A DNA stretch of 64,000 nucleotides from a virus (lineage: Duplodnaviria > Caudoviricetes), in IMG/VR virus record IMGVR_UViG_3300031524_000008, positions 614-64,613 of that record; one strand, given 5' to 3'. Each line of letters opens with the position of its first letter. The first letter of the stretch is position 1. This document shows, piece after piece, positions 23,036-49,468 of the stretch. Position numbers and translations under genes: made by a program. The notes beneath the pieces are model-generated. The model was not told where the DNA came from and made no database searches. It saw nothing but the letters and a program-made list of their open reading frames with translations.

Positions 23036-23415
23036 GTGTTAGTTCTTTTAAATCAGCAGCCGTAGCCGCGTTCCTGCTTTATCCCTACATTTGACTGAAC
23101 TTCTTTCGAAGCCCGCAGTTTGCCAACACTGCCGCCTCAACCCGATTCGCATTTAGGACGATTACTATTGAATCTGTTTGAGTTGAACCTAACTTGTAGT
23201 ATTAGCGAGCATCCCGGTTTATCCACTGTAACGTATTACAGCAACCTCTACGTCAGCTTTGTTAATGACTGATTTCGGCCCGTTTGCATTTATGCTCTCC
23301 TATCGTCTCGTCTGGTTACGCGAACTTTCTCACCTTACAGGGCTCTCAGTTTCGTACGGACAACTGGTAACTGCAATGCGCGTAGAGTCGCTTACTGATT
23401 TAAAAGAACTATCAC
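23036..23415 (-). ncRNA. rnpB: RNase P RNA (bacterial type, divergent)
   Basis: long P1 terminal stem; P2 CUCUACG/UGUAGGG; P3; GAGAAAGUUCGCGU pairs with GAACGCGGCUA (P4 with bulged U); P18 GGGCUUC-GAAA-GAAGUUC followed by AGUCAAAUG. Confidence 0.82.
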
Positions 23416-23708
23416 TACTTTACAATGGTTTCTAAATTTGTCAACAGATTTTTTAATTCATCCATCGTCATAGGCTTTTCGAACGCTGGCTCACCATCTT
23501 CAATCCTCTGCACCGTTCTGTCCAATTCGCTATTGAGAAATTTCAGCATCCACTTGCGGTCAAACGTTTTATCGACCATTCCTTTTACCAGAAAACCTAG
23601 CAATTCAGGCTCGACGCCACAATTTTCTATGGTCAGTTTGCGTTTCTTCATCGCTCCCTTAAAATCGTTCAAGAGGATGTTGGAGATTGGTTTAGCGTAG
23701 CTATTCAT
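23415..23708 (-). CDS. small protein resembling the GatB/YqeY helical domain
   Basis: ISNILLNDF...LTIENCGVEPELLGFLV matches my recollection of GatB ANW..GEL...IEE..ITPE.LAELI. Confidence 0.5.
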   Translation of the reverse strand: MNSYAKPISNILLNDFKGAMKKRKLTIENCGVEPELLGFLVKGMVDKTFDRKWMLKFLNSELDRTVQRIEDGEPAFEKPMTMDELKNLLTNLETIVK

Positions 23709-24033
23709 CAAGTTCTTTTCTAGCCGCTTCCTCAGCTTTGGCACGAGTAGAACCTATTAAAGCATACAGGTCATTAGGGTAAAATCCTTCATCTACCGGC
23801 TTGTTACGATGAAAATCCTCAGCTTTATCATGGTGTTTTGGACAAAGTGTTATCCCGTTTTCCTTAACGTAACCTCCTCCAAATATTTCATTTCGGTCTG
23901 TAATATGGTGAACTTCCAAATTTTGGCATTCAGTAATAGGCACCATACAAATTTTACATTTGTGTCCATCACGTTCGTAAACGTGTTTACGAAATCTTTC
24001 TCTGATTTGTCGCTTTGATAATTTCCACGCCAT
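23701..24033 (-). CDS. HNH endonuclease
   Basis: ERDGHKCKIC, LEVHHI, NGITLCPKHH. Confidence 0.88.
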   Translation of the reverse strand: MAWKLSKRQIRERFRKHVYERDGHKCKICMVPITECQNLEVHHITDRNEIFGGGYVKENGITLCPKHHDKAEDFHRNKPVDEGFYPNDLYALIGSTRAKAEEAARKELDE

Positions 24034-24035
24034 AT

Positions 24036-24110
24036 TGGTGCTTCGTTAGGAATTCGAATCCTAATTCTGAGTTTTAGAGACTCGTGTATTACCGATTATA
24101 CGAACGAAGC
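24036..24110 (-). tRNA. amber suppressor tRNA (CUA)
   Basis: cloverleaf, loop CU-CUA-AA, GG D-loop, UUCGA T-loop, encoded CCA. Confidence 0.85.
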
Positions 24111-24111
24111 A

Positions 24112-24552
24112 TTAACTTCTGCAAGTTTTACAGGTATTTTTATTTTTGTCAAGGTAAACTTTTTCGACAAAAGCGTACGTACCTTCAATCAACTGTAACC
24201 CCTTAATCATCCCAAACGGAAACCAGCGCCACGAATTATGTTTGTGCTTTTCAATCCACTGAGGCTCCTCGCCGGGATGTAATTCTAAATGAAACAAAAC
24301 ACAACTCTCGCAATCCGTATCGTAGATGTTATTGCCAAGTTCATTAAGGCGAGCGGGATGCGGCGTAAGACCAGTCTCTTCTTTCAATTCTCGCAAAGCA
24401 ATTTGCAGATGCGTTTCCTCTGGAGAATCCTCGCGACCACCGGGATACTGCCAATAACCACTAAACATTTCAGTATTCGTGCGCTGAGACAAACAAAATA
24501 GACCTCCTCGGGTGAGGATTACAGCGGCAGTTTTTCCTAGGCGGCGTTTCAT
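24112..24552 (-). CDS. Nudix hydrolase
   Basis: PGG...ALRELKEETGL. Confidence 0.9.
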   Translation of the reverse strand: MKRRLGKTAAVILTRGGLFCLSQRTNTEMFSGYWQYPGGREDSPEETHLQIALRELKEETGLTPHPARLNELGNNIYDTDCESCVLFHLELHPGEEPQWIEKHKHNSWRWFPFGMIKGLQLIEGTYAFVEKVYLDKNKNTCKTCRS

Positions 24553-24590
24553 TTTCTCGACTGTACTATTTTTTATCCGAACGTCAAGCG

Positions 24591-25025
24591 TTAATATTTT
24601 AGATTTAAATTAATATTGTCAAAACGTAATTTGAAATACAGCCACGCATTCGCAAGCATATCCATAAAATACGATATAGCGGCGATTGTCCATACTCCGT
24701 GCGATAAAGCGTCAACAGACAGCATACTAAATATCATTAGGTTGCCAAGAGCGAAAGCTAAACCTGCCATATACTTCTTGAATAAGATATTCAACACACC
24801 TAATACTGTCATACTTAGTGCTATTAGGCCAAAAGATATTCTATAGTTGCCATTAAGCATCAAAGCTATTGGGTTGTCCCCATAGAATCTAAGATGAAAA
24901 AATAAAATACCAATGCTCAAAAGCAACATTTTAATCGTATAAAAAGCTCTTAGAGAGTAATACGGACTTTTTACAAAGATATTATACAGTTTTGTGCTCA
25001 TTAGCTTTTTGGGAATAGACTTCAT
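24591..25025 (-). CDS. 4-TM membrane protein
   Basis: four hydrophobic helices. Confidence 0.7.
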   Translation of the reverse strand: MKSIPKKLMSTKLYNIFVKSPYYSLRAFYTIKMLLLSIGILFFHLRFYGDNPIALMLNGNYRISFGLIALSMTVLGVLNILFKKYMAGLAFALGNLMIFSMLSVDALSHGVWTIAAISYFMDMLANAWLYFKLRFDNINLNLKY

Positions 25026-25695
25026 TAATGTCTGTTGAAGTACCTATCCATTGTACTATTCTACCTTGACTATCGAATCTTGGCAATACTCTTATTAAAA
25101 ACCAACGATATTCTCCATCTGAAACTTTTTTAAACCTCGTAACAGTATCAAAAGGAAGACCTTTACTGATTGAGTTTCTCCATTCCGAAGTAATCTTAGG
25201 AACATCATCAGGATAAACAGCTTTAACCCATCCGTCGCCGCGAGCTTGGTCAACATTAATACCAGTATAGTCAAACCATCTTTGATTACAGTAATCAATA
25301 TCTCCAGAGGGGCTAGCTGTCCAAACAATTTGGGGCATATAATCAGCTAAAAACTTGTAATGAACGAGATACTCCTCGTTCTCTTTACGAAGACGCTCTA
25401 GCATCTTTTCTTTTTCAGCAATGAGTGTACGATGTTTTTCAATCTCATTTTTATATTCATCTTCTTTACGCTCAAGTTCATGCCTTATTTCCTCACGATA
25501 GTCAGAACTTTCTTTCATAAACGCAGAGAAATCATCGACGCGTTGTTTCTTACGGCTAACTAATAAACTACCAATTACAGTAACAATAGCTGTTACGGCT
25601 GAATATGCAAATGTATGCCAATCCTCGGGATTTGATTGCCGCGCCGATTCCGAAAGGCTAGAAGCTGCTTCTGCTAAAATATTAATATGCAACAT
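24982..25695 (-). CDS. TM + coiled coil + PAS/PAC domain protein
   Basis: LADYMPQIVW...YCNQRWFDYTG...GW..AVYPDD...DGEYRWF...WIGTSTDI. Confidence 0.85.
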   Translation of the reverse strand: MLHINILAEAASSLSESARQSNPEDWHTFAYSAVTAIVTVIGSLLVSRKKQRVDDFSAFMKESSDYREEIRHELERKEDEYKNEIEKHRTLIAEKEKMLERLRKENEEYLVHYKFLADYMPQIVWTASPSGDIDYCNQRWFDYTGINVDQARGDGWVKAVYPDDVPKITSEWRNSISKGLPFDTVTRFKKVSDGEYRWFLIRVLPRFDSQGRIVQWIGTSTDINEVYSQKANEHKTV

Positions 25696-25696
25696 A

Positions 25697-26089
25697 TTAT
25701 CTTAAAAGCATCTTATCGTATGGTATTCGAAATGTTAACCAACAAACTACGAACATTTCAAATAAGAAGTTTGTAGCGTCCATGTATTGACCTGACGCGA
25801 CATGAGTAAAACCTAGATACCCATAAAGAAAAACATTTAAAGCAGCAAAATAAAAGCTTGCCCAAAAGCTCTCAATAAGAACAGAGATTAGACCAAGAAA
25901 CCCTAAAATTAAAAAGCAAAAAGGCCAAACTCCTTGAGATAAGAAATTTAATGTAGGGTTGGGTACGAGGACTCCGAATAGGAGTTGTATCCCCCACATA
26001 ATCGTACGTAGCGCGTAAATTAATTGTACGCACGCTGGGCCACTTTCAAGAAGAGTGTGGCGTAGGGATTTCAAAATGGTCAAGCGCAT
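25697..26089 (-). CDS. 4-TM membrane protein
   Basis: four hydrophobic helices; GTGTAA-N8-ATG. Confidence 0.7.
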   Translation of the reverse strand: MRLTILKSLRHTLLESGPACVQLIYALRTIMWGIQLLFGVLVPNPTLNFLSQGVWPFCFLILGFLGLISVLIESFWASFYFAALNVFLYGYLGFTHVASGQYMDATNFLFEMFVVCWLTFRIPYDKMLLR

Positions 26090-26130
26090 ACCAACTTTTA
26101 CACTTATACCACTAAGAAATTTGAATTTTA

Positions 26131-27398: not shown

Positions 27399-27475
27399 TG
27401 GAGCCGATATGGGAACTTGCATCCAACATTATCTCGTTTACGAAACGAGCGCATCACTATTTATGCTTTATCGGC
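27399..27475 (-). tRNA. tRNA-Thr(CGU)
   Basis: cloverleaf, loop UUCGUAA. Confidence 0.85.
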
Positions 27476-27508
27476 AAGTGCGCCCCATTGCCATACGCAC
27501 GGTTAAAA

Positions 27509-27673
27509 TTAAATTCTTGGTCCTCTACCTACTACCAATGATACTAGGAACAATACCAAAAACACTACGAACAACAGTTTTGCAATTGATGCTGCGGCTC
27601 CAGCGATTCCTACGAGTCCTAGAAGTCCAGCTAACAAAGCTATAATCAAGAATGTGAGTGCCCAACTTAACAT
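27509..27673 (-). CDS. DUF1328/YtjA-like small membrane protein (54 aa, not in ORF track)
   Basis: [46 protein letters not shown]; SD AAAGGTGG. Confidence 0.85.
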
Positions 27674-27700
27674 AATAATCACCACCTTTCTTACTAACTT

Positions 27701-27886
27701 TTACACTAGTTTGGGAAGGCTATCAAGTTCTTTTCTCCACTCATCTATCTTGCGATAACACGCAGATACATCTAGTTCTGCATCACCGTTCGATTTAGAA
27801 GACAATTTATCCTGAATAGCTTTCTCAAACCTTGCGATATTGTCCTCAAGGTATTTGCGCTGTTTTTCAAGTTTCTTTAATTTCAT
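27701..27886 (-). CDS. hypothetical coiled-coil protein
   Basis: ATG directly follows tRNA CCA. Confidence 0.55.
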   Translation of the reverse strand: MKLKKLEKQRKYLEDNIARFEKAIQDKLSSKSNGDAELDVSACYRKIDEWRKELDSLPKLV

Positions 27887-27887
27887 A

Positions 27888-27962
27888 TGGTAGGCACGGA
27901 GGGATTCGCGCCCTCGACTCACGAGTTAGAAGCTCGGTATGATTTCTGCTTCACCACGCGCC
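27888..27962 (-). tRNA. tRNA-Arg(UCU)
   Basis: loop CUUCUAA. Confidence 0.88.
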
Positions 27963-28025
27963 TAAATTCGATATTTTACCACGCCTCGATTTACACTGCG
28001 TTTCAGCATTGTGAGGGCGCGTTTT

Positions 28026-28099
28026 TGGATGCGGATATTGGTTTCGCGCCAATTCTACTTCTTTCAGAGAGAAGGTTGCTACTATTACAACAATCCGCA
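28026..28099 (-). tRNA. tRNA-Gln(CUG)
   Basis: loop CUCUGAA, U1-A72. Confidence 0.88.
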
Positions 28100-28104
28100 G
28101 TATT

Positions 28105-28179
28105 TGGTATCCATACGGGGAATCGCGCCCCGACTAAAAGTTTAGGAAACTTTTGTGCTATCTGTTACACTATACGGAT
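28105..28179 (-). tRNA. tRNA-Arg(CCU)
   Basis: loop UUCCUAA. Confidence 0.88.
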
Positions 28180-28180
28180 A

Positions 28181-28340
28181 AAATTTACGGAGAATCGCGC
28201 TTTCTTGATATTCGAATTCGGCTCCATACCCGAGGGATGCTGCCCTCTTCCCGCCTCTATGGTTTCTTGACCTATGTGCAGTAAGTCTCAGCGATTCGGA
28301 AACCGGCATCGACGGCCTAGACCTTTTCCGTAAAATTTTT
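28181..28340 (-). ncRNA. putative structured ncRNA, unknown class
   Basis: terminal inverted repeat aaatttacggagaa / ttttccgtaaaattt. Confidence 0.45.
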
Positions 28341-28649
28341 TAATGCTTTAATAGCACTTTCACCTTCGTAAAATCTAGCGTAAGTAAAGTAAGATAGTTC
28401 TTTTACCATCCCAATTACTCCATCGCCTTCTTCTCTAGTATCGACTCTAACAAAGTAAATAACTACTGCTTCTCGGTCGGTATATGGAGAGTTAGTATGT
28501 TTGAACCAAAAGAAATGAAGACCTTCTAATTCTTCGATGGCTTTATCGAAGTCGTACCACTTTGTAACTAATACAGCGGTATTATCAAATTCAAACTCTC
28601 GAACTTTAGTATCGACAAAATTTCCAATCAGAGACTTGTGCCATTTCAT
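28317..28649 (-). CDS. hypothetical protein
   Basis: ORF follows a TTGAC promoter. Confidence 0.65.
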   Translation of the reverse strand: MKWHKSLIGNFVDTKVREFEFDNTAVLVTKWYDFDKAIEELEGLHFFWFKHTNSPYTDREAVVIYFVRVDTREEGDGVIGMVKELSYFTYARFYEGESAIKALKNFTEKV

Positions 28650-28689
28650 ATGTAGATTCTACATTGATTAATGGTCGCGTCAACTAAAT

Positions 28690-28764
28690 TGGTAGCCCGT
28701 TAGGGTTACGCTCCCTATTCAACAGGTTGAAAGCCTGTGGTCCTAACTATTAGACGAACGAGCC
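28690..28764 (-). tRNA. tRNA-Glu(UUC)
   Basis: loop CUUUCAA. Confidence 0.88.
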
Positions 28765-29180
28765 GTCTCATGCTTATCTCTATAATAATTTGGGTCGAAG
28801 TCCTTTAATTCATCAAACAAACTATACGCGCTACCGCAAAGTTTGCCGGTTTCGTGAAGGTATTGCCAGTTGATTTCAGAAAATCCAGCCGCCAGAGAAG
28901 CTTGAATGTATCTTTTTAAGAATCGTACTTTAGATACAGCCTTGTTTTCCTCAGTGGTAAGATACGATTCGTAATGGTGTTTGGTTTCAGACCATTCAGG
29001 ATAATCCTTCATACATTCATCGCATCCGCCGCCGTTGCAGGAAACGTTCTTACATGCTGGACACTTTATACAAACTGTCTCGCACAATTCACAGTACGAC
29101 AAAGGATATTTACCCTTCCACATTTGACGGACGCCAAAAATATTGTCCATAGTTTGGTTAAGGGTGTCAGGATTTAACAT
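28743..29180 (-). CDS. hypothetical Cys-rich zinc-binding protein
   Basis: several CxxC. Confidence 0.7.
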   Translation of the reverse strand: MLNPDTLNQTMDNIFGVRQMWKGKYPLSYCELCETVCIKCPACKNVSCNGGGCDECMKDYPEWSETKHHYESYLTTEENKAVSKVRFLKRYIQASLAAGFSEINWQYLHETGKLCGSAYSLFDELKDFDPNYYRDKHETARSSNS

Positions 29181-29452
29181 TATTTTAATTCAAAATGGTT
29201 AGGCTCGTCGGTATGAAGTATTCTTAAACAAATATTATCTAAGAAAAAGACATCATACCTTATCAGTTTTTGAAATCTTGTTAAGCTATCTTCATACCAG
29301 TTCGGACGTTTTTCTTTTATTGGAGAAGGACTCCAACAAACATTGGTTAATCTAGCGTAGTTTTCTGGACCTAATACCATTGCTACAGGGTCGCACTTAA
29401 AGGCTTTGCGATAACCTACCATAGCCTGATTTAGAGTATCGAGGTCGAACAT
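29180..29452 (-). CDS. hypothetical protein
   Basis: coupled ORF. Confidence 0.6.
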   Translation of the reverse strand: MFDLDTLNQAMVGYRKAFKCDPVAMVLGPENYARLTNVCWSPSPIKEKRPNWYEDSLTRFQKLIRYDVFFLDNICLRILHTDEPNHFELK

Positions 29453-29976
29453 TATGACTTCTTACTGAAATTTGCAATTCCTGTAGCCACCGACATGCCG
29501 CTACAATACATTTGACTCGTGGACAAAAACTCGTTCTTCCATGACCAGTCGTTCATAACGAACTTCGAAAAATCGTCTTCCGATAATTCAAATAGGTCGT
29601 TTGCGCTTAATTTAACCATTTGAATTGCGCGGTTGTAGTCGTCTTCGTGGCTTTCTGGAAATGGAATGTTAAAATTAAACAAAGCGTACTGTTGTTTGGA
29701 ACTAAAGACTACGGGTTTAACGCTCTCTTCTAAGTTTGTTACACTTTCGAGGGTAGTTTGTAGCTCTTCCTTAACAAGAGGTAATACTGTCTTGATACGC
29801 TCTGAAAGAGTCTTCTTTACGCTCTTATAGTATCCTTTAAGGGCATTTGCAAGTAAGTCGTCGTGCGCTTTCTTATTATCAAGAAGAGCTTTTAAAAGGT
29901 CTTCGCGCTTGACCTTTACACGTTGAAAGGTTGAAAATGTTTTAAGGGCTTCGATGTCAGATAATGATGTAGGCAT
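29452..29976 (-). CDS. hypothetical phage protein
   Basis: P.SH..DY.RAI.M...F..FVMNDWSWK. Confidence 0.75.
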   Translation of the reverse strand: MPTSLSDIEALKTFSTFQRVKVKREDLLKALLDNKKAHDDLLANALKGYYKSVKKTLSERIKTVLPLVKEELQTTLESVTNLEESVKPVVFSSKQQYALFNFNIPFPESHEDDYNRAIQMVKLSANDLFELSEDDFSKFVMNDWSWKNEFLSTSQMYCSGMSVATGIANFSKKS

Positions 29977-30022
29977 ATCCTGATATTAGGAAGACTTGAA
30001 TCATTCGTCAACTAAAAAGAAA

Positions 30023-30113
30023 TGGCGGTTCGAGAAGGTAACGCTCCCTATACCGTATTTCAGGTATCAACTGTTTAGCAAACAGTGTTCAACACTTGTT
30101 GAAGACACGAACC
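30023..30113 (-). tRNA. tRNA-Ser(GCU)
   Basis: loop UUGCUAA, long V arm, G73. Confidence 0.85.
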
Positions 30114-30116
30114 AAA

Positions 30117-30207
30117 TGGCGGTGAGCAGAGAACTCGCATCCCAAGCCTGTTTTAGAGGCTCCAGCTAGTTTCCAGCTAGCGTCCATACTTAATGGATTT
30201 ACTCACC
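30117..30207 (-). tRNA. tRNA-Ser(GGA)
   Basis: loop CUGGAAA, long V arm. Confidence 0.85.
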
Positions 30208-30210
30208 AAA

Positions 30211-30302
30211 TGGAGGATAGCTGACGATTTGCACGCCAAACCTGTTTTAGAGGTTCGTTTGGTTTTCGAAACCAACCTCGCGCCTTGACGAGTTAACTAT
30301 CC
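30211..30302 (-). tRNA. tRNA-Ser(CGA)
   Basis: loop UUCGAAA, long V arm. Confidence 0.85.
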
Positions 30303-30305
30303 AAT

Positions 30306-30394
30306 TGGCGGATAACGTAGGTGTCGCTCCCAAAGCCATTGCTGGCTCCCATCGCTTTCAAGGCGAGTCCGAAGGCTGCTTCGGTTCATCATCC
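30306..30394 (-). tRNA. tRNA-Ser(UGA)
   Basis: loop CUUGAAA, long V arm. Confidence 0.85.
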
Positions 30395-30399
30395 AAAAA

Positions 30400-30527
30400 T
30401 GGGAAAACGAACGCAACTAATGCTACCTACTTAAACGTCGGTCTCTTCTGCGCAATCTTCACGCTCATGGACACTGGTTTGTTTTCGGTTTGGACTAGCG
30501 ATACCTTTACGGCTGCGTTCGTTCCCT
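30400..30527 (-). ncRNA. putative structured ncRNA ending in CCA
   Basis: terminal stem GGGAACGAACGCA / UGCGUUCGUUUUCCCA. Confidence 0.55.
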
Positions 30528-30532
30528 AAAAA

Positions 30533-30847
30533 TTATTCGGTAAATGTGATACCGTACTTCCGACCCGCCTTCTTGATACGAGACTTAACCTTCCCTAGGT
30601 CAGATGAAGAGTATTCGCTAGCATTCTTATCTTTGTTAATATAACTCCATGCTGCTCGCACTCGTTCAGCGTTATCAATCGGATACTTGAAATTTGCGGG
30701 GTCTGCGTATTGAGACTTGTTCTTTGGGTATCCTTCTGGAGGAGAGTCGTGTCCAAAGGCGCTCTTACGAGGAAGTTGACCGTTAGAAATCTGATGTTCA
30801 ACGATTAAATCGGAAAGGTCGATTATTTGGTCAGTGTTTGGTCGCAT
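30533..30847 (-). CDS. DUF6582-like protein
   Basis: YADPANFKYPID...VRAAWSYIN; GTGTAA-N9-ATG. Confidence 0.75.
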   Translation of the reverse strand: MRPNTDQIIDLSDLIVEHQISNGQLPRKSAFGHDSPPEGYPKNKSQYADPANFKYPIDNAERVRAAWSYINKDKNASEYSSSDLGKVKSRIKKAGRKYGITFTE

Positions 30848-30890
30848 ATATCTTCTTTACACTAAAAGGTTGCCTAGTTACTGAATTCTT

Positions 30891-31181
30891 TTACTTCGGA
30901 ACCCCTATCATGCCAAGGGCGTTCTTGTTTAGTGCGGAATCGTTTTCCGCACCGTAAACAATTTTCCATGACCAGTCGTTCATAACGTACTTCGAAAGGT
31001 CGTTTGCACTCAATTCCGTTCCCTCTACAATTTCACACGAATCAAATGAACCGTCAACAAAACTAATCTCGGCACGATTTTTGTCGTGAATAAAAATTGA
31101 AGACATCCCCATTTCTTCTTTAGTTATAAAATCTACAATTTGTTGTCTAGTAAATCTAATCATGGATTCATTTTGCACCAC
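30891..31181 (-). CDS. hypothetical protein
   Basis: shares SK.VMNDWSWK with 29452..29976. Confidence 0.55.
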   Translation of the reverse strand: MVQNESMIRFTRQQIVDFITKEEMGMSSIFIHDKNRAEISFVDGSFDSCEIVEGTELSANDLSKYVMNDWSWKIVYGAENDSALNKNALGMIGVPK

Positions 31182-31193
31182 TTGACGTATGAA

Positions 31194-31364: not shown

Positions 31365-31365
31365 A

Positions 31366-41126: not shown

Positions 41127-41675
41127 CTATCCTACTGCATTTTGGTCTTTCGTCAACAGCTTTTTCAAAAATTCTTCAAGTCTTGCGGAATCTTCTCGGT
41201 TGTGGGGGTTAAAAGTTGCTAAATCGAAGCGAGGAATTGCTTTTGTGCCAGCGATTCTCCATCCGTGACCTGTTCCCCCAAAGCCTTGTTTTGAATGATT
41301 CAGAAAAGCAATACACGCATTAGCCCTAGAGAGAATTCCGGCATTTCTGTTCATCATCTGCTTTGCGCCTTTTGAAAGCTGGTCGTAAACAGGATGATGG
41401 GCACGAGCTATGAACTCCCACTCGGGATTGTCCTGCCACGTAACCAAATTCTTTTCGACAATCAGTTCTTCGTTATATGTCTTCCAAGGAAGATAAAGAA
41501 TCACATGGGATGGACTAACACGATTTCCGCCACGGGCAAAGGCGGCGTCAGAACCTAAAGCGTTTCCCGTCGCAATATAACCTCCTGATAAAACGATGAC
41601 CTCGCCTATTTTTTCCATAATAGCAGCAGTCCATAAGGAAATATCACGAGAACCTATACATGCAATTCTTACCAT
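41127..41675 (-). CDS. DprA/SLOG-family protein
   Basis: ACIGSR, TGNALGSDAAF, RN, GGTG. Confidence 0.75.
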   Translation of the reverse strand: MVRIACIGSRDISLWTAAIMEKIGEVIVLSGGYIATGNALGSDAAFARGGNRVSPSHVILYLPWKTYNEELIVEKNLVTWQDNPEWEFIARAHHPVYDQLSKGAKQMMNRNAGILSRANACIAFLNHSKQGFGGTGHGWRIAGTKAIPRFDLATFNPHNREDSARLEEFLKKLLTKDQNAVG

Positions 41676-41677
41676 AA

Positions 41678-42343
41678 TTAATGCCCTGATAAAGTATTCT
41701 TATCGTGATGGTCTATTACAACAGTTTGCTTTCCCCTCATAATCTCCATTACATCCTGAAATGACACGGGGCCACCAAAGTTGTCGATGCCGCAATCGAG
41801 AGCTTTATCATCAAGAGCTTTTGGATTACGCCCTTCATCGTTACCGTGACTATGGCCGCTCAACGCAATAGAGCCGTGCTGCATTTCATCCCAAATACGA
41901 AATGGAAAGTGCGAAGCAACATAAGGCACACCATCAATGCGTCCAAGTACATAGTCGCCCAAAAACATTACTTTATTACCATACGCTAAAGGATATACCT
42001 CAACTAACGCGCTTCCATACTGTCGAAGGACTTCACTCTTATATACGGCTTTCACGCCGCTATTATGGTTTCCCCATAGTAAATAGATGTACCCATTTAG
42101 CTCTGAAAGTAATTGCTTAAAGCGCGAACCATCAGGGTCGTTGAATACAAAATCACCAAGACAAAGAACGTTATCGTCCTTTCCTACAAGGTTATTCCAA
42201 TTCTTTTTTACACCCTCGTCATGCGATTGAATATCTGAGTAGCCCCGAGGCTTCCACAAGAATTCGCGGTCATGGTGAAAGTGTGTGTCTGACACAATCC
42301 ATAATGGGGTTTTTTTAGTATTAAAATTTACGTGTTGTGACAT
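41678..42343 (-). CDS. calcineurin-like metallophosphoesterase
   Basis: SDTHF, LGD, GNHN, GHSHG. Confidence 0.9.
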   Translation of the reverse strand: MSQHVNFNTKKTPLWIVSDTHFHHDREFLWKPRGYSDIQSHDEGVKKNWNNLVGKDDNVLCLGDFVFNDPDGSRFKQLLSELNGYIYLLWGNHNSGVKAVYKSEVLRQYGSALVEVYPLAYGNKVMFLGDYVLGRIDGVPYVASHFPFRIWDEMQHGSIALSGHSHGNDEGRNPKALDDKALDCGIDNFGGPVSFQDVMEIMRGKQTVVIDHHDKNTLSGH

Positions 42344-42344: not shown

Positions 42345-42794
42345 TTATTCTACATTGCATACGAATCCAAACTCACCAACGGTAGGAATTACGAAATTGT
42401 TAAATTGCTTTTCAATTACATCTTCGGGTACTTGACGCACTCGACCCTTATTTCTCAATTTAAGAACGTCTAATGGCACTCGAAAAACATACGCTGCTGT
42501 TTCTGCGTCACATCGTTTTGCTATGTCTAGGAAATCTTTTCGCGCTTTCAAATGATAATTGCAAGCGTCTATTAAAACAGATTTACCCTGTTTCAACAGA
42601 TGCTCGGTAACTGCATATACTGTTTGAAAAACCTTTCCGCTAACGGTTTGGTCGCCTTCACCATTACCAACGATTGCGCGAAACTCATCAGTGGAAAGAC
42701 GTACGACCGAAGGGTTAAGTGAGACATAATCTTTCGAAAAGCGAGTCTTGCCAGATGCAACGCATCCGACCATAAGTATTAATGTTGGTTTCAT
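42345..42794 (-). CDS. polynucleotide kinase-like P-loop kinase (AAA_33)
   Basis: GCVASGKT, STDEFR, IDA, RN..R...VPEDVI. Confidence 0.85.
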   Translation of the reverse strand: MKPTLILMVGCVASGKTRFSKDYVSLNPSVVRLSTDEFRAIVGNGEGDQTVSGKVFQTVYAVTEHLLKQGKSVLIDACNYHLKARKDFLDIAKRCDAETAAYVFRVPLDVLKLRNKGRVRQVPEDVIEKQFNNFVIPTVGEFGFVCNVE

Positions 42795-42825: not shown

Positions 42826-44013
42826 TCAATCACTTTCATCTTTATCCGCAGCGCCACCGAATGAGCGATTGCAGTCGAACTGAGCATAATTTGGTCGGCC
42901 AGTCGCGAACGTTTTCTCAATTCCATCCACGGTTTCCGTCAACTTTCCAGTGTATCCGTAAAAGAAAATCGTGGCAGTCTTACCAACATAATTTTCAGGA
43001 TGTACCCAAATATCCTTCGCCTGTTCAAACGTTCCCTTGATATTAGCCTTGAAAGTACGCCCGTCTTTCATCAAACACACAACTTTGCCAGCGGTGCCAG
43101 CGCGATTTCCGATACCTTCTTCAACCCCGACGATTTTAAATTCTTCGTCGTCAGTAGGCTTTACCTTCAAAAGATTCGATGAGCGTTTGTTCTCATAGGG
43201 AGCGCCCAAAATACGAACGATAGAACCTTCTTCCCCAGCGTTAATATCATCAGCGAACATCCTCATTACATCCTCGTGAGTATTCGCAACACGCGTAAAG
43301 ACCTGACAGTAATATGGGTTGGAAGAGAAATTCTTTTTGATTGCAGCGGAACGTGCGCGATAGTTAGTTTCCTTCTCAACACCATCATACCCATATCCAT
43401 CATAAATATAAAACCGTACCAGCTTCTCGCTTTTATCAAGGTCAGCTTGCGTGATATGAACGGTCTTACGAATTAGCTTCATTACTTCATTAAGCTTCTG
43501 ACCAAAATTAGGAGCGTATAGTTCTCCATCAATCACCGCATCGGGCCATAAAGCAAAAAACGATTTCATAGACTCAAAAATATGAGGCACAGAAATATAA
43601 CGTTCACCCTTACGGGAAAACAAACCATGGCGCGTAGCAACACAACGGCCACCGTTGAATTTTAGTTGGACGCCAACCGGATATACCACTTTATCCAAGC
43701 GTTCGAGATACTTTTTTGCAAGCATCGGCTGTACGAACTGAACATTGTCAATATCCGCGATGTTTTCGAAGTAGCCACCTGATTTGAGTTGTTTATCATA
43801 TCGTGCTTGAGCCTCTTTCATTGCTTGGTCTTCGGGAGACGTTTCGTTGCCGCGACCGATGTTCTTTCCTGCACAAACTGTGGGTTTTGCACGAACAGAT
43901 TGACCGTTTTGTTGCCCCGAAACGGTAAAAAAACTATTTCCATCTACAAAAATTTGCCATTCTTGTACCGCGTTTGTTGATGTCCGAGAATAAAGTTTAG
44001 GAAATGTGTGCAT
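42826..44013 (-). CDS. ATP-dependent DNA ligase
   Basis: PMLA, KFNGGR, IDGELY, YIYD, EGSIVR, KRSSNLLKVK, OB fold. Confidence 0.9.
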   Translation of the reverse strand: MHTFPKLYSRTSTNAVQEWQIFVDGNSFFTVSGQQNGQSVRAKPTVCAGKNIGRGNETSPEDQAMKEAQARYDKQLKSGGYFENIADIDNVQFVQPMLAKKYLERLDKVVYPVGVQLKFNGGRCVATRHGLFSRKGERYISVPHIFESMKSFFALWPDAVIDGELYAPNFGQKLNEVMKLIRKTVHITQADLDKSEKLVRFYIYDGYGYDGVEKETNYRARSAAIKKNFSSNPYYCQVFTRVANTHEDVMRMFADDINAGEEGSIVRILGAPYENKRSSNLLKVKPTDDEEFKIVGVEEGIGNRAGTAGKVVCLMKDGRTFKANIKGTFEQAKDIWVHPENYVGKTATIFFYGYTGKLTETVDGIEKTFATGRPNYAQFDCNRSFGGAADKDESD

Positions 44014-44043: not shown

Positions 44044-44265
44044 TCAAGTATTTTTTAAGGATGCAAGTCCTGTAGTCCACCATGCGCCGTCTTTGAATCT
44101 TAGGTACGTAAACATACCGTTTTTAGCTTCCAAGTAAGCTAATGTCAAATCGTCTGGCTCAATTCTTTTAACTGTAAAAGATGTAAGCGAAAGTTCTCCG
44201 TTATCTTTAACGGCTATATCTATTTCTTCTCCTAGCGTTATTGTATCTTGTATTTTCGAACTCAT
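44044..44265 (-). CDS. hypothetical protein
   Basis: ATGA overlap. Confidence 0.55.
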   Translation of the reverse strand: MSSKIQDTITLGEEIDIAVKDNGELSLTSFTVKRIEPDDLTLAYLEAKNGMFTYLRFKDGAWWTTGLASLKNT

Positions 44266-44783
44266 AAAATTTGATGTTTTATAAATAAATCTCTAACATT
44301 CATTGTTATTTTACCAAGATAATTAGTACCTATTCCGTCACATATACCCCATGTAGTATCCCTCCAAGAGTTCGTCTCTTCTAGGTAACGCGCTCCGGTT
44401 TCAAGCAGCTTTGCGCGTAAGTCGCGATGTCGAAAAAATTTGTCGAACACAACCGCTAGCATTACATCCTTACGTACTCCTTTAATTTCCCAATCGTCGC
44501 GCATTTTAACGCTCTTTCCCCATTTTTTTACTTCTCTTGCTGGCATCGCAGCTACAATCTCATACTGTTTTTCATACCATTCTTTATAATCGTCTTCATC
44601 ATCAGGAATCACAGGAATCAACTTTGCAAATTGAAATGCGTTCTCGGTACGTCTAAACCATCTACCACCATAATAAACAGAAGCATCATAAAAATTAGAC
44701 AAAAAACGATACGGCCCGAAGAACCCACAAACTTCGTGCTCAGTGTGTCTGGCATATGAAGGTATTTCGGTATCGTAGTTCAT
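44262..44783 (-). CDS. NADAR (YbiA-like) protein
   Basis: FLSNFY, ENAFQFAK, KF, LLETG, DTTWG, NYLGK. Confidence 0.9.
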   Translation of the reverse strand: MNYDTEIPSYARHTEHEVCGFFGPYRFLSNFYDASVYYGGRWFRRTENAFQFAKLIPVIPDDEDDYKEWYEKQYEIVAAMPAREVKKWGKSVKMRDDWEIKGVRKDVMLAVVFDKFFRHRDLRAKLLETGARYLEETNSWRDTTWGICDGIGTNYLGKITMNVRDLFIKHQIL

Positions 44784-44784: not shown

Positions 44785-45429
44785 TTATTTTTTATGGAAT
44801 GCCAATATTCTATCTAACCACTCATTCCATTGTTCTATAGATAGGTTGCTTTTAGCTTTATTGCATAATCCACACGCTGGTACACAATTTTCGCGGATGT
44901 ATCCAACCTCGTTATTTATTCTATCTATTCCATTATAGATATATGGACCGTTCGCATCACAAGAATTCATACTTTGGTAGGGTTTAACTCCACAATAACA
45001 GCATCGGGAACTTGTAATAGTTCTAACGTCTTCATCTATGAGAGTAAACAATAGATTTCTCCTTTTTGCGGCGGCTTTATATTGTCTGACTAATCTTGCG
45101 AAAGAAGCTTCTCCAAATGGCTTTCGCAAACTCGCACCAAAATCAAAATGGTCCGGGTACATTTTATTGAATGTTCCGCATCCAGAAATTTCGGGGTGCT
45201 TTCTTTTATTCCTGTTTATTGTTTCTTTGTTTAATTCGTAGTATTTTAAGTTTTTTGCATCGCGGGCTTCTTTGTGTGATATATAGTATTCATTCACCCG
45301 CTGTTTATTACAAGCTTTACAAACCGAACACAACCCGTCTTTCTTCTGTTTGTCTTTATGAAACCTTTTTATAGACTGTTTTTTATCACACTTACTACAT
45401 TTTTTTGATTGCTGATTTCGGGATTTCAT
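44785..45429 (-). CDS. HNH-like homing endonuclease
   Basis: CSKC..CKAC; NGIDRINNEVGY..NCVPACGLCN.AK. Confidence 0.82.
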   Translation of the reverse strand: MKSRNQQSKKCSKCDKKQSIKRFHKDKQKKDGLCSVCKACNKQRVNEYYISHKEARDAKNLKYYELNKETINRNKRKHPEISGCGTFNKMYPDHFDFGASLRKPFGEASFARLVRQYKAAAKRRNLLFTLIDEDVRTITSSRCCYCGVKPYQSMNSCDANGPYIYNGIDRINNEVGYIRENCVPACGLCNKAKSNLSIEQWNEWLDRILAFHKK

Positions 45430-46072
45430 CGTGTTCTATAGTTTTTTTGAAGGAAAGGTTTCCTGCTGTATGATACACAATTATACCTTCTGCGGGGAAA
45501 TTATTTTCTACCACGCCACCATTATGAATTGCCACGCTACCAAAACAAACGAGTGCGTCTAAAACTCTTTTGATTTGTACCGTATCGAACATGCCTTCGT
45601 AAAGGATGGGGACAACCCTACAGCACGCAGGCGCATATTCTTGCTTTTCCTTTAGAGGAGAGACTACGCCGTTGACGACAAATAGTGGACTTTCCGCTCC
45701 ACCGAGCATGACGGGAGACCAATCAAAATAAGCGTGCGGGCGCGTATCTACCCAACGACCCACGTTGAATAGCGAGAAATGCTTTTCCTTTTGACCGTAT
45801 CCACGTTGAATACCTGCGCCCCACCACTCACCATAATGACGACCGACTCCTAGGGCCATAAGTTCATCCTTATTAGCGTAGGCCCAGCGAGCAAAGCCAT
45901 AGTTGTCTTGCTCGGGCGTAATCCAACGAGTACGACTACCAACCAAAAACTCTCCTTCGTCTGTGATTACAATAGACGCGTTCGTACCGTCGATTTTTTC
46001 AGTCAACGACATTTTCCTCGACAGACGAGGCATCTTTGGGAATTCGACGAATTCATTATTTGCAATATTCAT
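45395..46072 (-). CDS. RNA ligase (Rnl2-like adenylyltransferase domain)
   Basis: FPKMPR, TEKIDGTNA, SRTR, GEWWG, VPILY, EGIIV. Confidence 0.8.
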   Translation of the reverse strand: MNIANNEFVEFPKMPRLSRKMSLTEKIDGTNASIVITDEGEFLVGSRTRWITPEQDNYGFARWAYANKDELMALGVGRHYGEWWGAGIQRGYGQKEKHFSLFNVGRWVDTRPHAYFDWSPVMLGGAESPLFVVNGVVSPLKEKQEYAPACCRVVPILYEGMFDTVQIKRVLDALVCFGSVAIHNGGVVENNFPAEGIIVYHTAGNLSFKKTIEHDEIPKSAIKKM

Positions 46073-46095
46073 GGTTCCCATTCTAGGCGGATTTT

Positions 46096-47241
46096 CTATT
46101 CCGTCAAGAACTTCCTCTCGCCCTTTAATCGAAGCCTCGACTTCTTCGTATCCAGTTCCTCCCAAAAGAGTTGCGCGTCCGTAGCAGAACTCATGCCACC
46201 CACGTACTCAAATGAATAGCAGAAGCGGTTTGACACAAGCCATTTTTTGTCACGAGTATCCAGCTTTCTAACTTTTCGGCTATGAGAGGTTTCTACCCAT
46301 TTCTCACTTTTGAGACGATACGCTATCATCGCAGGATGAATAGTCTTTGAGTAATACGTTCCTCCTCCAGCCCTAACCATGGAGCCAATATAATCAGAAA
46401 CTTTCACTCCAATCCCTAATCCTTGAAAGTCTGGCAATACAACAGTACGAGATTCGCGCCAGCAATCCTTTTTATAAGCATTAGGATGAGCGAGGGCGGC
46501 AGAGAAAGCTACGGGATTATCATTCCACGTAACTAAAAAACATCGCGCCCCTTTATTTATGTCAGCACTTAGATAGTGATAGTGTTTAAAAAGTTCCCAC
46601 GCTTCATATTTGCTTCGGAATACTTTAAGTGAAATTTCAGGTCGTCGAAGACTCCCACGCGGTAAAACGTGAGTCAGTCCCTCTGTAGGATTGTAAACCC
46701 AATCCGGTTGTAAAAATTCAATAATATCAGCGTGACAAGAAGCGACGACAACTTTCTTGTTAGTATTACGCACGTACTTTTGTAAAGCGTTCGAAGCGGA
46801 CTTAGCAACATTCCTATCTACTACCGAGGTAAATTCATCAATTAAAATAATCTCGCTCTCCTCTGACATCGCTCTAGCTACATTACATCGAAACTGCTCC
46901 CCATTACTTAATGCCTTGAAAGGACGAAGCCAAGCGGGTACATTCCCAAATCCTACAGCACAAAATAACTCTGTTGCCTTTTCTGGAGTTATGTAATCGA
47001 AGTTACTTATTACTGCTAATTCATCCCACACATACTCAGGAATTTTACCAAAAGTTTTCAGCAAGGTACTCTTACCGCTACCGCTTGGACCGTATATAAG
47101 TCCTATGTTCCAATTTTCAGGAGGAGTAATGTTATTAGTTATAATTGAAACACTTTCCTCGACATGGGGAACGTCAAACATCTGTTCTGCGACGGCTGTA
47201 TAATCGTCGTGAACAATAGGATATTTTAAAACAATATCCAT
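46096..47241 (-). CDS. ABC-type ATPase fused to a GNAT acetyltransferase
   Basis: GPSGSGKS, LSNGEQFR, IDEF; HYL, RTVVLPDFQGLGIG. Confidence 0.85.
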   Translation of the reverse strand: MDIVLKYPIVHDDYTAVAEQMFDVPHVEESVSIITNNITPPENWNIGLIYGPSGSGKSTLLKTFGKIPEYVWDELAVISNFDYITPEKATELFCAVGFGNVPAWLRPFKALSNGEQFRCNVARAMSEESEIILIDEFTSVVDRNVAKSASNALQKYVRNTNKKVVVASCHADIIEFLQPDWVYNPTEGLTHVLPRGSLRRPEISLKVFRSKYEAWELFKHYHYLSADINKGARCFLVTWNDNPVAFSAALAHPNAYKKDCWRESRTVVLPDFQGLGIGVKVSDYIGSMVRAGGGTYYSKTIHPAMIAYRLKSEKWVETSHSRKVRKLDTRDKKWLVSNRFCYSFEYVGGMSSATDAQLFWEELDTKKSRLRLKGERKFLTE

Positions 47242-47675
47242 TAGGAATACATTCCAAAAAACTCTAGCTCATTATTACACCGAATGCACCCTCTAGCCTC
47301 CCCACGCCTGCCACATAAAGGACCAATTGTATCTTCTCGGCGGTAAGACATTTGCCCCTCAATCCACCCCTCACAATAACGGCAATAGTAGTATCTTTCT
47401 CCGTCAGAAATTATGTTCCTATCAGAAAATTCGTGAGAGGTTCGTGAATCCTTACCAATAGGCTTTTCTTTTAAGAATTTAATACGCGGGTCGATAAATC
47501 GCCCTTCGACTAATCGGGGACCGGGATAAAGTATATCCTGTTCAGCTTCTAACCAAATTTCTTCATCAATACCAGAAGGGCGTCCTTTTTCAAGCCAGAT
47601 TTCTTCTGCTCTCCGACGAATGGCTAATGTCGTTAGAACGTCCACAATCATTTCATTACAAACTTTCATTTTCAT
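47241..47675 (-). CDS. DUF2934-like domain plus zinc ribbon
   Basis: IRRRAEEIW...GRPSG...WLEAE; two CxxC. Confidence 0.65.
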   Translation of the reverse strand: MKMKVCNEMIVDVLTTLAIRRRAEEIWLEKGRPSGIDEEIWLEAEQDILYPGPRLVEGRFIDPRIKFLKEKPIGKDSRTSHEFSDRNIISDGERYYYCRYCEGWIEGQMSYRREDTIGPLCGRRGEARGCIRCNNELEFFGMYS

Positions 47676-48187
47676 TATTTTAAAGGTTTAAAAGGGTCTT
47701 CTAACAGTAAATCTACAAACTCTTTAATCTTTTTGCAAGTTTTACCGTTCGGAGGTATTTTGTATTTATCTAAAGCGTGGTCTTTAATCCACTCTCGTAA
47801 ATTGCTTCCAAATTCAATGGAACGCGCACGCCAATCACAAACCATTTCCGCCAGAAACAATTCGGGTACATTCTCTATACCATGCCAATACTCCGGGTGG
47901 TGAGCGTTTACTTGCTGGTGATGGGCGATAGCGAACTTTAGAAGTTCAGAGTCTTTATCTTGAGTTAGCCCCAAGAATTCAACTCCACGGAGCTTCGAGT
48001 TATCATGCTCGCGCCCGTTACGTATCAAGTCAACCCCCAATTCAATCTCTCCTTCCTTAATTAACCTTCGGCCTAATAGCTCGCATCCCTCCCTTACGTT
48101 ATCTTGATGACGCAACACTGTTTCTACCCTTTCCAGAACTTCTTCTGGAGAGAGCGACGTTAATTCGAGTATGGCTGATTTAGGCAT
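47675..48187 (-). CDS. HD-like (DUF5662) protein
   Basis: HDNSK, HH..NAHHPEY, EMVCDW. Confidence 0.78.
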   Translation of the reverse strand: MPKSAILELTSLSPEEVLERVETVLRHQDNVREGCELLGRRLIKEGEIELGVDLIRNGREHDNSKLRGVEFLGLTQDKDSELLKFAIAHHQQVNAHHPEYWHGIENVPELFLAEMVCDWRARSIEFGSNLREWIKDHALDKYKIPPNGKTCKKIKEFVDLLLEDPFKPLK

Positions 48188-48265
48188 TTGATTTTGGAAG
48201 TGTATGTAATACCTGCGGTACTTTCATACGCATTATACGACCGGGTTGTGTGCGGCAGTCGTCAA

Positions 48266-49468
48266 TCATTTTTTTAGAACTTGGTAATATAGTTTTTTAA
48301 CAGCATCACGACTCAACTGCTTTCCATCCAAAATAGAGAAGACATAAGAAGCGCGGTTAGTTTGTCCATATGCTTCAAATATCTTCTTAGCTTGTGCGGC
48401 ACGTCCTTTTTGGAAACCGTACTGTATAGCGAGATGTTTGATGCTTTCAGCAAATGCTTGCATACCCGCGATGATACGCTCAACTTCTTTGGTAGCGTCA
48501 GCCACCTTAGAAGCGTCATTACGCGACTGCTCGGCAATTTCGTAGTCGATATTTTCGAGAACGTAATCGTAGAATTCTGAGAAAGACTTACAATCAAGGG
48601 TTATCCACAAATCAAGAACCTTGTCGAAAGACGACAATTCAGACTTTAACTTGTGAAGTGCAAGATACCATGCGGACTTGACCTTACGAATATGCTGTCC
48701 ACGACCGAAGTACACGCAGAATCCTTCGAATCCACGAGCTAACTCTGGAACAGCTTGTGCGCCAGTAGTAGATTGATACTCTTGTGGAGCGTTGAATTCG
48801 CGAGTCTTCGCGTAGTCTAGCGCTTGGATTGCAGCAAACATTTCATCAAAAGTATTGAACTTGAAACGACGTGGACGCTTAACTCCAAGGTTAACCGCAC
48901 GAGAGTCTAGCTCGTCTTGAGAACGTAAACTATAATCGTTGTGGTCGATAACCGCAGTCAAATATAACTCGGGTTCGTCACCATAGCTGATGACAATTTT
49001 GTTAGTAGGAGAAACCCATTCGAAAACCAAAGATTCTCGTGAAGTTTCTATTTCGCCGGGAAGAGAAGTAAAAACGCGAGGATACTTTTGCTTCAAGATT
49101 TCGATTTCGAAACCGTTTTCAAGCTTGGATGCGTCCACAGTTCCACGAGTACGTATGATATACTCACCCTTATATTTGGAAACGATAAGGGTTGAACCAT
49201 CGACTTTTTCCATAAGTTCGACGCCCTTCATGGATGACGGGGTTGGAACAATATCGCTCCTCTCATCAAAGTTAAAAAATTTCTTAAACGACAATGATAT
49301 AGGCGACCAATCTGAGAGACGCCATATTGAAGACCTATATATTAGGGTTTCTTTTGTCCATTTAGCTCCTATATTTTTAGGATGAATTAGAACACATGCG
49401 TCACCCGCGAACACACAGGGCTTAAAATCAAATTCCTCAGTATTAATTTTGGATATATCGGCTGTCAT
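48266..49468 (-). CDS. RNA ligase (T4 Rnl1-like)
   Basis: KFFN, EKVDGS, TRG, FEWVSP.NKIV..Y, EGF, KVKS.WY. Confidence 0.85.
   Translation of the reverse strand: MTADISKINTEEFDFKPCVFAGDACVLIHPKNIGAKWTKETLIYRSSIWRLSDWSPISLSFKKFFNFDERSDIVPTPSSMKGVELMEKVDGSTLIVSKYKGEYIIRTRGTVDASKLENGFEIEILKQKYPRVFTSLPGEIETSRESLVFEWVSPTNKIVISYGDEPELYLTAVIDHNDYSLRSQDELDSRAVNLGVKRPRRFKFNTFDEMFAAIQALDYAKTREFNAPQEYQSTTGAQAVPELARGFEGFCVYFGRGQHIRKVKSAWYLALHKLKSELSSFDKVLDLWITLDCKSFSEFYDYVLENIDYEIAEQSRNDASKVADATKEVERIIAGMQAFAESIKHLAIQYGFQKGRAAQAKKIFEAYGQTNRASYVFSILDGKQLSRDAVKKLYYQVLKK

Follow-up and report, generated by a model that had tools for sequence, protein, structure and literature searches.

Repair of tRNA by a phage is known from bacteriophage T4, in which Pnkp and Rnl1 act against PrrC (Amitsur et al. 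1987, quoted in PMC10264068; PMC1484252, PMC3592404). Here we describe a region of related content in a 64,000-nucleotide (nt) stretch of DNA from a virus of the Caudoviricetes (the window, numbered from its first letter), in which genes for healing and sealing RNA ends, a very long array of tRNA genes and an RNase P-like RNA follow one another on the minus strand between positions 49,468 and 23,036. The window is nearly all of a 64.6-kb viral contig whose completeness was put at 27% by CheckV; its source is a large phage of peat soil, and the window amounts to about a quarter of that genome. Like T4, this phage has a 5'-kinase, a 3'-healing enzyme and an Rnl1-type ligase together with tRNA genes. 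The T4 phosphatase is a DxDxT enzyme fused to the kinase, whereas the window has a separate metallophosphoesterase and a second ligase-fold gene; T4 repair has PrrC as its nuclease partner, whereas the window has no known nuclease partner; and T4 has 8 tRNA genes against approximately 60 in the window. We consider it likely that the region is a co-directional auxiliary region of three cooperating but separable modules, which keeps translation independent of the host tRNA pool.

The bacterial Pnkp of the Clostridium thermocellum type consists of a kinase, a lambda-phosphatase-like phosphoesterase and a ligase (PMC2190708, PMC3902929). The best curated match of the window kinase is to this family (TIGR04075, bacter_Pnkp, 7.9e-23, over the kinase part of the model) and the adjoining metallophosphoesterase belongs to the same superfamily as the phosphoesterase of bacterial Pnkp, but in the window the modules are separate genes, the adjacent ligase is of the DNA-ligase family and a search of its genes yielded no Hen1 partner. 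Evasion of anticodon nucleases by phage tRNAs has been described from T5-like phages and mycobacteriophages, and these also form a large set; their changes lie in the anticodon loop, while those of the window lie at the elbow, and the main text of that report contains neither "T-loop" nor "D-loop" (PMC10264068). With 56 tRNA genes that serve all 20 amino acids, the Xanthomonas jumbo phage XacN1 (PMC5852040) resembles the window in gene number and amino-acid coverage, but the window genes mostly escape the standard finders, form one co-directional array of 13 kb, and are accompanied by repair genes and an RNase P-like RNA. In the Anabaena trn operon, a long array is induced by translational stress and repressed by TrcR (PMC8421152, PMC10272220). 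That array also lies on one strand with an embedded homing-endonuclease gene, and it offers a precedent for a spare tRNA set induced by stress; it differs in being cellular, plasmid-borne and controlled by a repressor, and PMC8421152 contains neither the word elbow nor T-loop.

A sequence-only reading of this stretch had proposed an inducible tRNA-rescue regulon encoded on one strand. The one-strand arrangement was borne out, since every open reading frame (ORF) with a family match between 19.4 and 50.5 kb and all 64 tRNA-like matches lie on the minus strand. The healing and sealing genes that it had named were likewise recovered, and the genes of this block are as follows.

48266-49468, minus strand: Rnl1-type (T4 gp63-like) RNA ligase of 400 amino acids (PF09511 1.9e-14, phrog_562 4.3e-32; KVDG at K88).
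47675-48187, minus strand: DUF5662 protein (PF18907 1.2e-19; homologue in the same order in the relative G002, described below).
46096-47241, minus strand: ABC-type ATPase fused to a GNAT acetyltransferase (phrog_11143 1.3e-112; ABC_tran and Acetyltransf_1).
45395-46165, minus strand: second RNA-ligase-fold protein, Rnl2/DraRnl-like (PF09414 6.2e-14, phrog_548 2.2e-29; KIDG at K57).
44262-44783, minus strand: NADAR domain protein (PF08719 1.3e-18, phrog_1017 2.8e-34; homologue in G002).
42826-44013, minus strand: ATP-dependent DNA ligase (PF01068 5.2e-15, phrog_114 1.2e-64; KFNG at K118).
42345-42794, minus strand: polynucleotide 5'-kinase of the bacterial Pnkp type (AAA_33 3.7e-21, phrog_505 2.7e-19; P-loop GCVASGKT).
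41678-42343, minus strand: calcineurin/lambda-phosphatase-type metallophosphoesterase (phrog_547 3.6e-38; PF00149 listed for the identical protein).
41127-41675, minus strand: DprA-like protein (phrog_768, 3e-27), the last gene before the array leader.

Pfam, PHROGs and NCBIfam were concordant on these identities. The Rnl1-type ligase scored 54.5 bits with PF09511 (cut-off 28.3) and matched the equivalog model TIGR02308 at 3.8e-14 with 52.6 bits, below the cut-off of 242 for that model. In the kinase the Walker A sequence is present and the AAA_33 score lies above the cut-off. The metal-binding motifs of the metallophosphoesterase (DxH, GD, GNH and GHxH) are invariant across 17 homologues, making it a candidate 2',3'-cyclic phosphodiesterase/3'-phosphatase; no T4-type DxDxT phosphatase domain was found, the 3'-healing enzyme here being of the metallophosphoesterase type. 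The block further contains a DUF2934 protein and an EndoVII/HNH-like protein. For the second RNA-ligase-fold protein no homologue was found in the fetched parts of G002. Taken together the repair genes look like a bacterial Pnkp divided into separate genes and joined by an Rnl1 of the T4 type and, by homology with the T4 enzymes, could restore RNA ends left by ribonucleases. The ATPase-GNAT gene occurs in many phages without tRNA arrays. A host of the Flavobacteriia type, considered from the best matches of this gene, was dropped: the gene occurs widely, and the window has promoter-like sites of the sigma-70 type.

Downstream of the repair block lies the tRNA array, which together with an outlying tRNA comprises the following.

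27399-40529, minus strand: tRNA super-array holding 63 of the 64 tRNA-like matches, with small ORFs interspersed.
39089-39553, minus strand: HNH/EndoVII-like endonuclease within the array (phrog_3322 2.7e-25, phrog_3118 1.1e-13).
24036-24110, minus strand: tRNA with anticodon CUA, of the amber suppressor type (found by ARAGORN; Rfam 57.6 bits; canonical GG/TTC elbow).

ARAGORN reported 24 tRNAs in the window with default settings and 34 when relaxed, and 34 elements reached the 29-bit cut-off of Rfam RF00005. We relied on a covariance model, R1, built from 21 class-I tRNAs of the array and run unfiltered on both strands of the 64-kb window. R1 detected 64 elements at E<=1, with 59 at E<0.01. 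The 64 are confined to the minus strand between 24.0 and 40.6 kb, and there were no matches elsewhere in the 64 kb, a purity of strand and place that serves as an internal control. Roughly 30 elements were matched by R1 only and did not pass RF00005. Across the 64 elements 95.5% of stem cells are paired, compared with 49.4% in shuffles and 38.6-42.3% when the partners were slid, and a CCA end is encoded in 60. The earlier estimate of approximately 70 tRNA and tRNA-like genes was thus of the right size but slightly high. The array stretch is also present in peat DNA, with 47-99% of its sampled words found in 19 metagenome runs.

As read from the ARAGORN and R1 sequences, the anticodons of the array cover all 20 amino acids, as had been claimed, plus the CUA amber suppressor. 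Tyr is represented only by two unusual genes, one with a long arm (36551-36635) and one with an anticodon loop of 10 nt (40147-40225). Duplicates are numerous (e.g. two copies each of Gln-UUG, Glu-UUC and Asp-GUC). Four Ser genes at 30023-30394 are, like that Tyr gene, long-arm forms, and all five fit the class-I model poorly. Long variable regions, which normally mark Leu, Ser and Tyr tRNAs, were also seen in Arg(UCG) at 36268-36382, Ile(UAU) at 33881-33970 and Lys(CUU) at 34075-34161, and G002 likewise has a long-arm Ile(UAU). In two elements (37764-37838 and 35582-35654) the anticodon stem is rich in C and the loop, of 8 and 6 nt respectively, reads GCGUU(C)A; their T-loops are not of the NGC type described below, and the two look like paralogues of a non-decoding tRNA-like RNA. 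Between two array members, 38259-38295 gave 34 bits with the abiF RNA motif (cut-off 37; E 0.0026 in a smaller search). Most of the small ORFs within the array had no Pfam or PHROG match and some may be spurious; that at 32141-32464 overlaps a tRNA-like match. The endonuclease at 39089-39553, probably a homing endonuclease, has a 36% identical homologue within the G002 array. The CUA tRNA stands apart from the array, between a Nudix gene and an HNH gene, while in G002 a CUA tRNA lies inside the array. Recoding of TAG in connection with this tRNA was rejected for the window: TAG ends 11 of the 65 ORFs and the read-through frames are short.

At the distal end of the region we found a structured RNA with its promoter-like site and an adjoining small protein gene.

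23050-23404, minus strand: structured RNA of approximately 355 nt with an RNase P-like core (P1, P2, P3, P4 with a bulged U, and CR-I-like and CR-V-like strings).
23417-23444, minus strand: promoter-like site TTGACA-16-TAAAGT, ending 13 nt before the 5' boundary of the RNA.
23415-23744, minus strand: protein of 109 amino acids homologous to part of the GatB/YqeY C-terminal domain, adjoining the RNA.

An RNase P RNA had been proposed at 23036-23415. A homologue of the RNA occurs in G002 and G003 with 71-87% DNA identity, compared with approximately 48% identity for proteins. In the consensus fold, which is closed by P1, 16 of the 63 predicted pairs differ by compensatory changes between the window and G002. 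P1 and P4 both appear in this fold with changes on both sides, and the long-range helix P4 retains its bulged U through them. P2 and P3 stand in the expected order, P2 having been paired by eye. P4 and the CR-I-like and CR-V-like strings resemble those in E. coli RNase P RNA. Compared with bacterial RNase P of type A (RF00010; E. coli M1) the RNA is similar in length, in its closure by P1, in the bulged U of P4 and in the CR-I/CR-V-like strings, but it is encoded by a phage. In G002 a TTGACC-16-TACAGT site lies at the equivalent place upstream of the homologue. Discrete RNA contigs covered the RNA in all four of the peat metatranscriptomes, with ends that match the P1 helix; the deepest ran over 23049-23394 (depth 47.9), 23050-23404 (55.5), 23085-23392 (25.9) and 23066-23381 (27.9), while pieces of the array were present at depths of 2-17. 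Bins without cover, namely 40064-42055 in all four runs and most of 23464-26119, are uninformative. We read the approximately 355-nt RNA as a real, separately transcribed and stable RNA with an RNase P-like catalytic core, and we lean towards regarding it as an RNase P ribozyme, in which case a ribozyme would be added to the phage tool kit. Among the open-access and bioRxiv papers listed for the subject of phage-encoded RNase P RNA, none contained the term "RNase P RNA". In one run (X21) a contig of 385 nt, with a depth of 55.5, joins 23404 back to 23050, the two sides of the junction having one letter in common. Such a contig would be expected of an RNA in circular or head-to-tail form whose ends meet in P1, but it could also be an assembly artefact.

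The adjoining protein had been called GatB/YqeY-like, and this assignment held for part of that domain. On its own the protein gave sub-threshold matches, always to the same part of GatB (PF02637 1.1e-4, 22.5 bits with a cut-off of 27; NF004014 0.0018; 3h0l_B 0.0049), and a word-based search found its own cluster only. An exhaustive HMMER search recovered 20 small stand-alone homologues (63-109 amino acids; P0024-P0043). A profile of these 20 matched five GatB chains, including 3h0l_B (1.9e-10), 4wj3_B (2.7e-6) and 3kfu_F (4.4e-6), and PF02637 was matched by all 20 members (best 8.3e-12), with approximately 60 residues of the 148-position domain covered. We conclude that the protein is a free-standing piece of the C-terminal region of GatB, which in GatB contacts tRNA. 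An AlphaFold model from the single sequence was poor (pLDDT, the predicted local distance difference test, 56.6).

In order to compare the region with its relatives, 75 viral loci were fetched through an alignment of the phosphoesterase homologues; many are near-duplicates, G000 is the record of the window itself, and G002 and the fragment G003 come from one phage. The closest complete relative, G002, has 186 kb with terminal repeats. Its genes run in the order Rnl1, DUF5662, ATPase-GNAT, NADAR, DNA ligase, kinase, phosphoesterase, DprA-like, tRNA array, His-phosphatase and RNase P-like RNA, so that the succession of repair block, array and RNase P-like RNA is the same as in the window, with the DprA-like gene again upstream of the array. 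Protein identities are 53% for Rnl1, 46% for DUF5662, 62% for ATPase-GNAT, 46% for the DNA ligase, 45% for the kinase, 48% for the phosphoesterase, 48% for the DprA-like protein and 33% for the His-phosphatase. The G002 array gave 51 R1 matches at E<0.01, all on one strand between 126.8 and 141.7 kb. The architecture is thus conserved in G002, while other relatives show that the parts are separable. G001 (159 kb, 92% complete) has homologues of the phosphoesterase, kinase and Rnl1 with no R1 match and one Rfam tRNA match, and G004 has homologues of the phosphoesterase, kinase and NADAR with no R1 and no Rfam tRNA matches. Among the 75 loci Rnl1 lies within 10 kb in 39, at least five tRNAs occur in 8, and both occur in one, a count in which the G002 array starts just beyond the flank of its locus. 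When 80 tRNA-array loci of other phages were collected by tRNA pattern alone, 16 carried a repair-gene homologue within the short locus (kinase 7, phosphoesterase 7, DNA ligase 1, Rnl2-like 1), a number that has no chance baseline; this hints that end-healing genes are often found beside phage tRNA arrays.

The idea that the parts supply and repair tRNA fits the gene content. A near-complete tRNA pool owned by the phage would sustain translation whenever those of the host were in short supply, poorly matched or cut, the RNase P-like RNA would trim the 5' leaders of very many precursors, and the healing block might act on cut ends; a connection with host defence is suggested by analogy with T4 and with the nuclease-evading phage tRNAs. 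Several observations weigh against this reading. The repair block is found without arrays in related phages, so that the functional link between the two is one we infer. The anticodon loop has 6, 8, 9, 10, 11 or 16 nt, or an insertion is present (22 nt after CAU at 38000-38088), in about 11 members of the array, which may not decode. The E-values of R1 are rough, and alignments fitted to R1 lean towards its structure. The approximately 355-nt RNA fails formal membership of the RNase P families: no Rfam RNase P family matched at E<=10 with a 551-nt query (22950-23500), no RNase P model matched at E<=1 over 22000-50500, and RF00010 at E<=10 had no match in the whole records G000 and G002, in a search whose control was positive in 11 of 14 genomes. 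No specificity domain (P7-P12, CR-II/III) was identified in it. Its structure rests on two distinct sequences, because, although a 16-mer from the RNA occurs in 11 viral contigs, only the two G002/G003 records proved to be true homologues by blastn. The RNA runs are assembled contigs, whose depth reflects expression poorly, and the RNA libraries may contain some DNA.

A different explanation, which we hold to be rather unlikely, is that the array serves codon supply and has grown selfishly: the tRNAs would only tune translation to the codon use of the phage or broaden its host range, the odd-loop members would be duplicated junk spread by the HNH homing endonucleases and the repair genes would belong to general nucleic-acid metabolism. 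HNH genes lie in or beside the arrays of both the window and G002, and T4 SegB is a known case of a homing endonuclease in a tRNA array (PMC8421152). The many duplicates would agree with such growth, as would the abnormal loops of the window, which contrast with anticodon loops of 7 nt in almost all G002 members, and so would the repair blocks that stand elsewhere without an array. However, the odd-loop members retain intact stems and CCA ends, which would not be expected of decaying copies, and the order of repair block and array has been kept at approximately 48% protein identity. Codon supply and evasion of defence are, moreover, not exclusive of one another.

RNase P, the ribosome and modification enzymes all recognise the tRNA elbow, and it is here that the members of the array depart from standard tRNAs. 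Among the 64 elements, the T-loop is of the NGC type in 49 and of the TTC type in 4, and the D-loop contains AG without GG in 46. A D-loop AG accompanies G55 in 43 elements and GG accompanies T55 in 4, leaving 4 discordant cases. The alignment of 21 class-I tRNAs shows no variation at G55 or C56 and almost none in the D-loop AG; the G19-C56 pair is retained, and the canonical G18 G19 / T54 Psi55 C56 elbow is absent from most members. Rfam alignments likewise show N-G-C-R in place of T-T-C-R in the T-loops and AG in place of GG in the D-loops. The low Rfam scores and the undercount by standard finders arise because an A18/G55 elbow replaces G18/U55. In G002 the T-loop is NGC in 28 of the 34 tRNAs reported by ARAGORN. 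More distant phages with arrays beside this phosphoesterase have standard TTC loops (e.g. 16 of 18 in locus L008).

We searched for this elbow elsewhere with a pattern consisting of the D-loop AATAGTAG joined to the T-arm GAGCGTWACC. At least 118 viral contigs matched, and in 61 of the 80 viral loci fetched the pattern lay inside a called tRNA, usually in 1-3 members of an otherwise standard array and in the majority of members in only a few loci. At least 120 bacterial genome stretches matched as well, 72 of 80 among the matches listed being Pelagibacterales. In all three Pelagibacter records that were checked (L274, L305, L241) the matching element is the chromosomal tRNA-Val(GAC), which adjoins a standard tRNA-Met. 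The SAR11 tRNA-Val(GAC) has the D-loop AATAGTA and the T-loop AGCGTAA, as in the phage tRNAs. The idea that the elbow is a phage-only design was therefore rejected, and its occurrence in a chromosomal tRNA-Val implies that it works with ordinary cellular machinery. What is special to the window and G002 is that nearly the whole tRNA set uses it. No paper on the A18/G55 change was found in the open-access and bioRxiv literature. Where this elbow is used, the tRNA counts of phage genomes, and arguments that rest on them, may be badly underestimated; the array, G002 and the Pelagibacter tRNA-Val together offer a natural experiment on the function of a near-universal tRNA corner.

It could also be proposed that the phage runs a self-contained and partly orthogonal tRNA system made up of the A18/G55 tRNAs, an RNase P-like ribozyme that would mature them, the GatB fragment that would assist them and the repair set as a back-up. 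If true, this would let the phage replace the host tRNA pool wholesale during infection, but we regard it as improbable. Its mechanistic version, to which we would also give little chance, holds that the rewired elbow marks phage tRNAs as self, so that they escape a nuclease or modifier of the G18/U55-T54 elbow, of host or phage origin; the host pool could then be lost while the phage tRNAs, the RNase P-like RNA and the repair enzymes sustained translation. With G55 and a variable position 54, these tRNAs lack the substrates on which the U54 and U55 modification enzymes act. The array covers all 20 amino acids with the elbow spread across it and kept in G002, and the phage has its own RNase P-like RNA beside a GatB-region fragment, all of which speaks for such a system. 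The same elbow is nevertheless found in the ordinary tRNA-Val of Pelagibacter and in 1-3 members of standard phage arrays, five array members, like the suppressor, have an elbow that is standard or nearly so, and no tRNA nuclease was found in the window among the family-searched proteins.

The sequence-only reading had further proposed that the whole region is switched on by ribosome stalling, through an attenuator between the repair block and the array. The elements concerned are the following.

40983-41069, minus strand: two sigma-70-type promoter-like sites, TTGACA-16-TAGAGT and TTGACA-17-TAAGAT, each matching 10 of 12 consensus positions (consensus matches only).
40846-40971, minus strand: 41-codon ORF, the proposed leader peptide, with a TAG stop and a start approximately 11 nt after the -10 box.
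40780-40814, minus strand: intrinsic-terminator-like hairpin with a 6-bp GC stem, a 17-nt loop and six T, present in the minimum-energy fold.

The two tandem TTGACA-type sites lie at 41069 and 41011, and the internal promoters claimed near 30010 and 28680 also exist as matches, with 9 and 10 of the 12 consensus positions in agreement. In total the region holds 49 promoter-like sites compared with 38.5 +/- 6.1 in shuffles, which is not clearly above the number expected. Under the proposal a leader-peptide attenuator at 40780-41069 would sense stalling at any codon and allow read-through into the array, the RNA, decoys and the repair genes. Promoters, the 41-codon ORF and the hairpin do follow one another in that order. 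The sequence AGCAAGC, 5 nt after the TAG, can be paired by eye with GCUUGCU, which overlaps 3 nt of the 5' arm of the terminator, so that this pairing could be masked by a ribosome terminating at TAG but would be left free by a ribosome that had stalled further upstream. Anabaena provides an example of a tRNA operon induced by stress (PMC8421152, PMC10272220). The ORF, however, has no Shine-Dalgarno sequence, a leader of approximately 5 nt and no enriched codon. The fold of the leader has a z of -1.0, with 33 of 200 shuffles folding at least as well, and the proposed antiterminator is absent from the minimum-energy and centroid folds. A second terminator-like hairpin follows at 40541-40570. 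In G002, the one relative available for this comparison, an HNH gene ends 7 nt before the first tRNA with no counterpart of the leader, and no plus-strand terminator-like site was found in the 1.8 kb upstream of the array. The Anabaena operon is under repressor control and not attenuation (PMC10272220). The supposed switch stands downstream of the repair genes, and the RNase P-like RNA has a promoter-like site of its own and forms a discrete RNA contig, which weighs against a single regulon. A stall-induced switch, possible on paper, is thus unsupported and very improbable, a useful negative in that the parts are real and syntenic while the control proposed for them is without support.

Around the RNase P-like RNA and downstream of it, the minus strand encodes further proteins.

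24112-24552, minus strand: NUDIX hydrolase (PF00293 2.3e-14).
23701-24033, minus strand: HNH endonuclease (PF01844 5e-06).
22538-23032, minus strand: DSP-like phosphatase (DSPc, below the Pfam cut-off).
22057-22554, minus strand: macro domain protein (Macro, above cut-off).
20816-22060, minus strand: aldolase_II-domain protein (Aldolase_II, above cut-off).
20127-20819, minus strand: His-phosphatase (His_Phos_1, above cut-off; homologue downstream of the G002 array).

By their domains, the genes at 20127-23032 are predicted downstream phosphatase and de-modification genes, and the Nudix, macro and phosphatase genes might complement the healing block. The genes around the region are also of an auxiliary kind and include a ribonucleotide reductase, a dUTPase, a polymerase-like protein, glycosyltransferases, and genes for kinases and phosphatases; structural genes were not observed in the window. 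A megablast search with 9.5 kb of the window gave no match to isolated phages, and at the protein level the matches to isolated phages were distant, with 26-47% identity. Signalling-type genes were also observed, with a protein-kinase-like gene (below the Pfam cut-off), a PP2C phosphatase and a PAS-domain protein assigned in that order to 2288-3982, 4644-5465 and 24982-25695.

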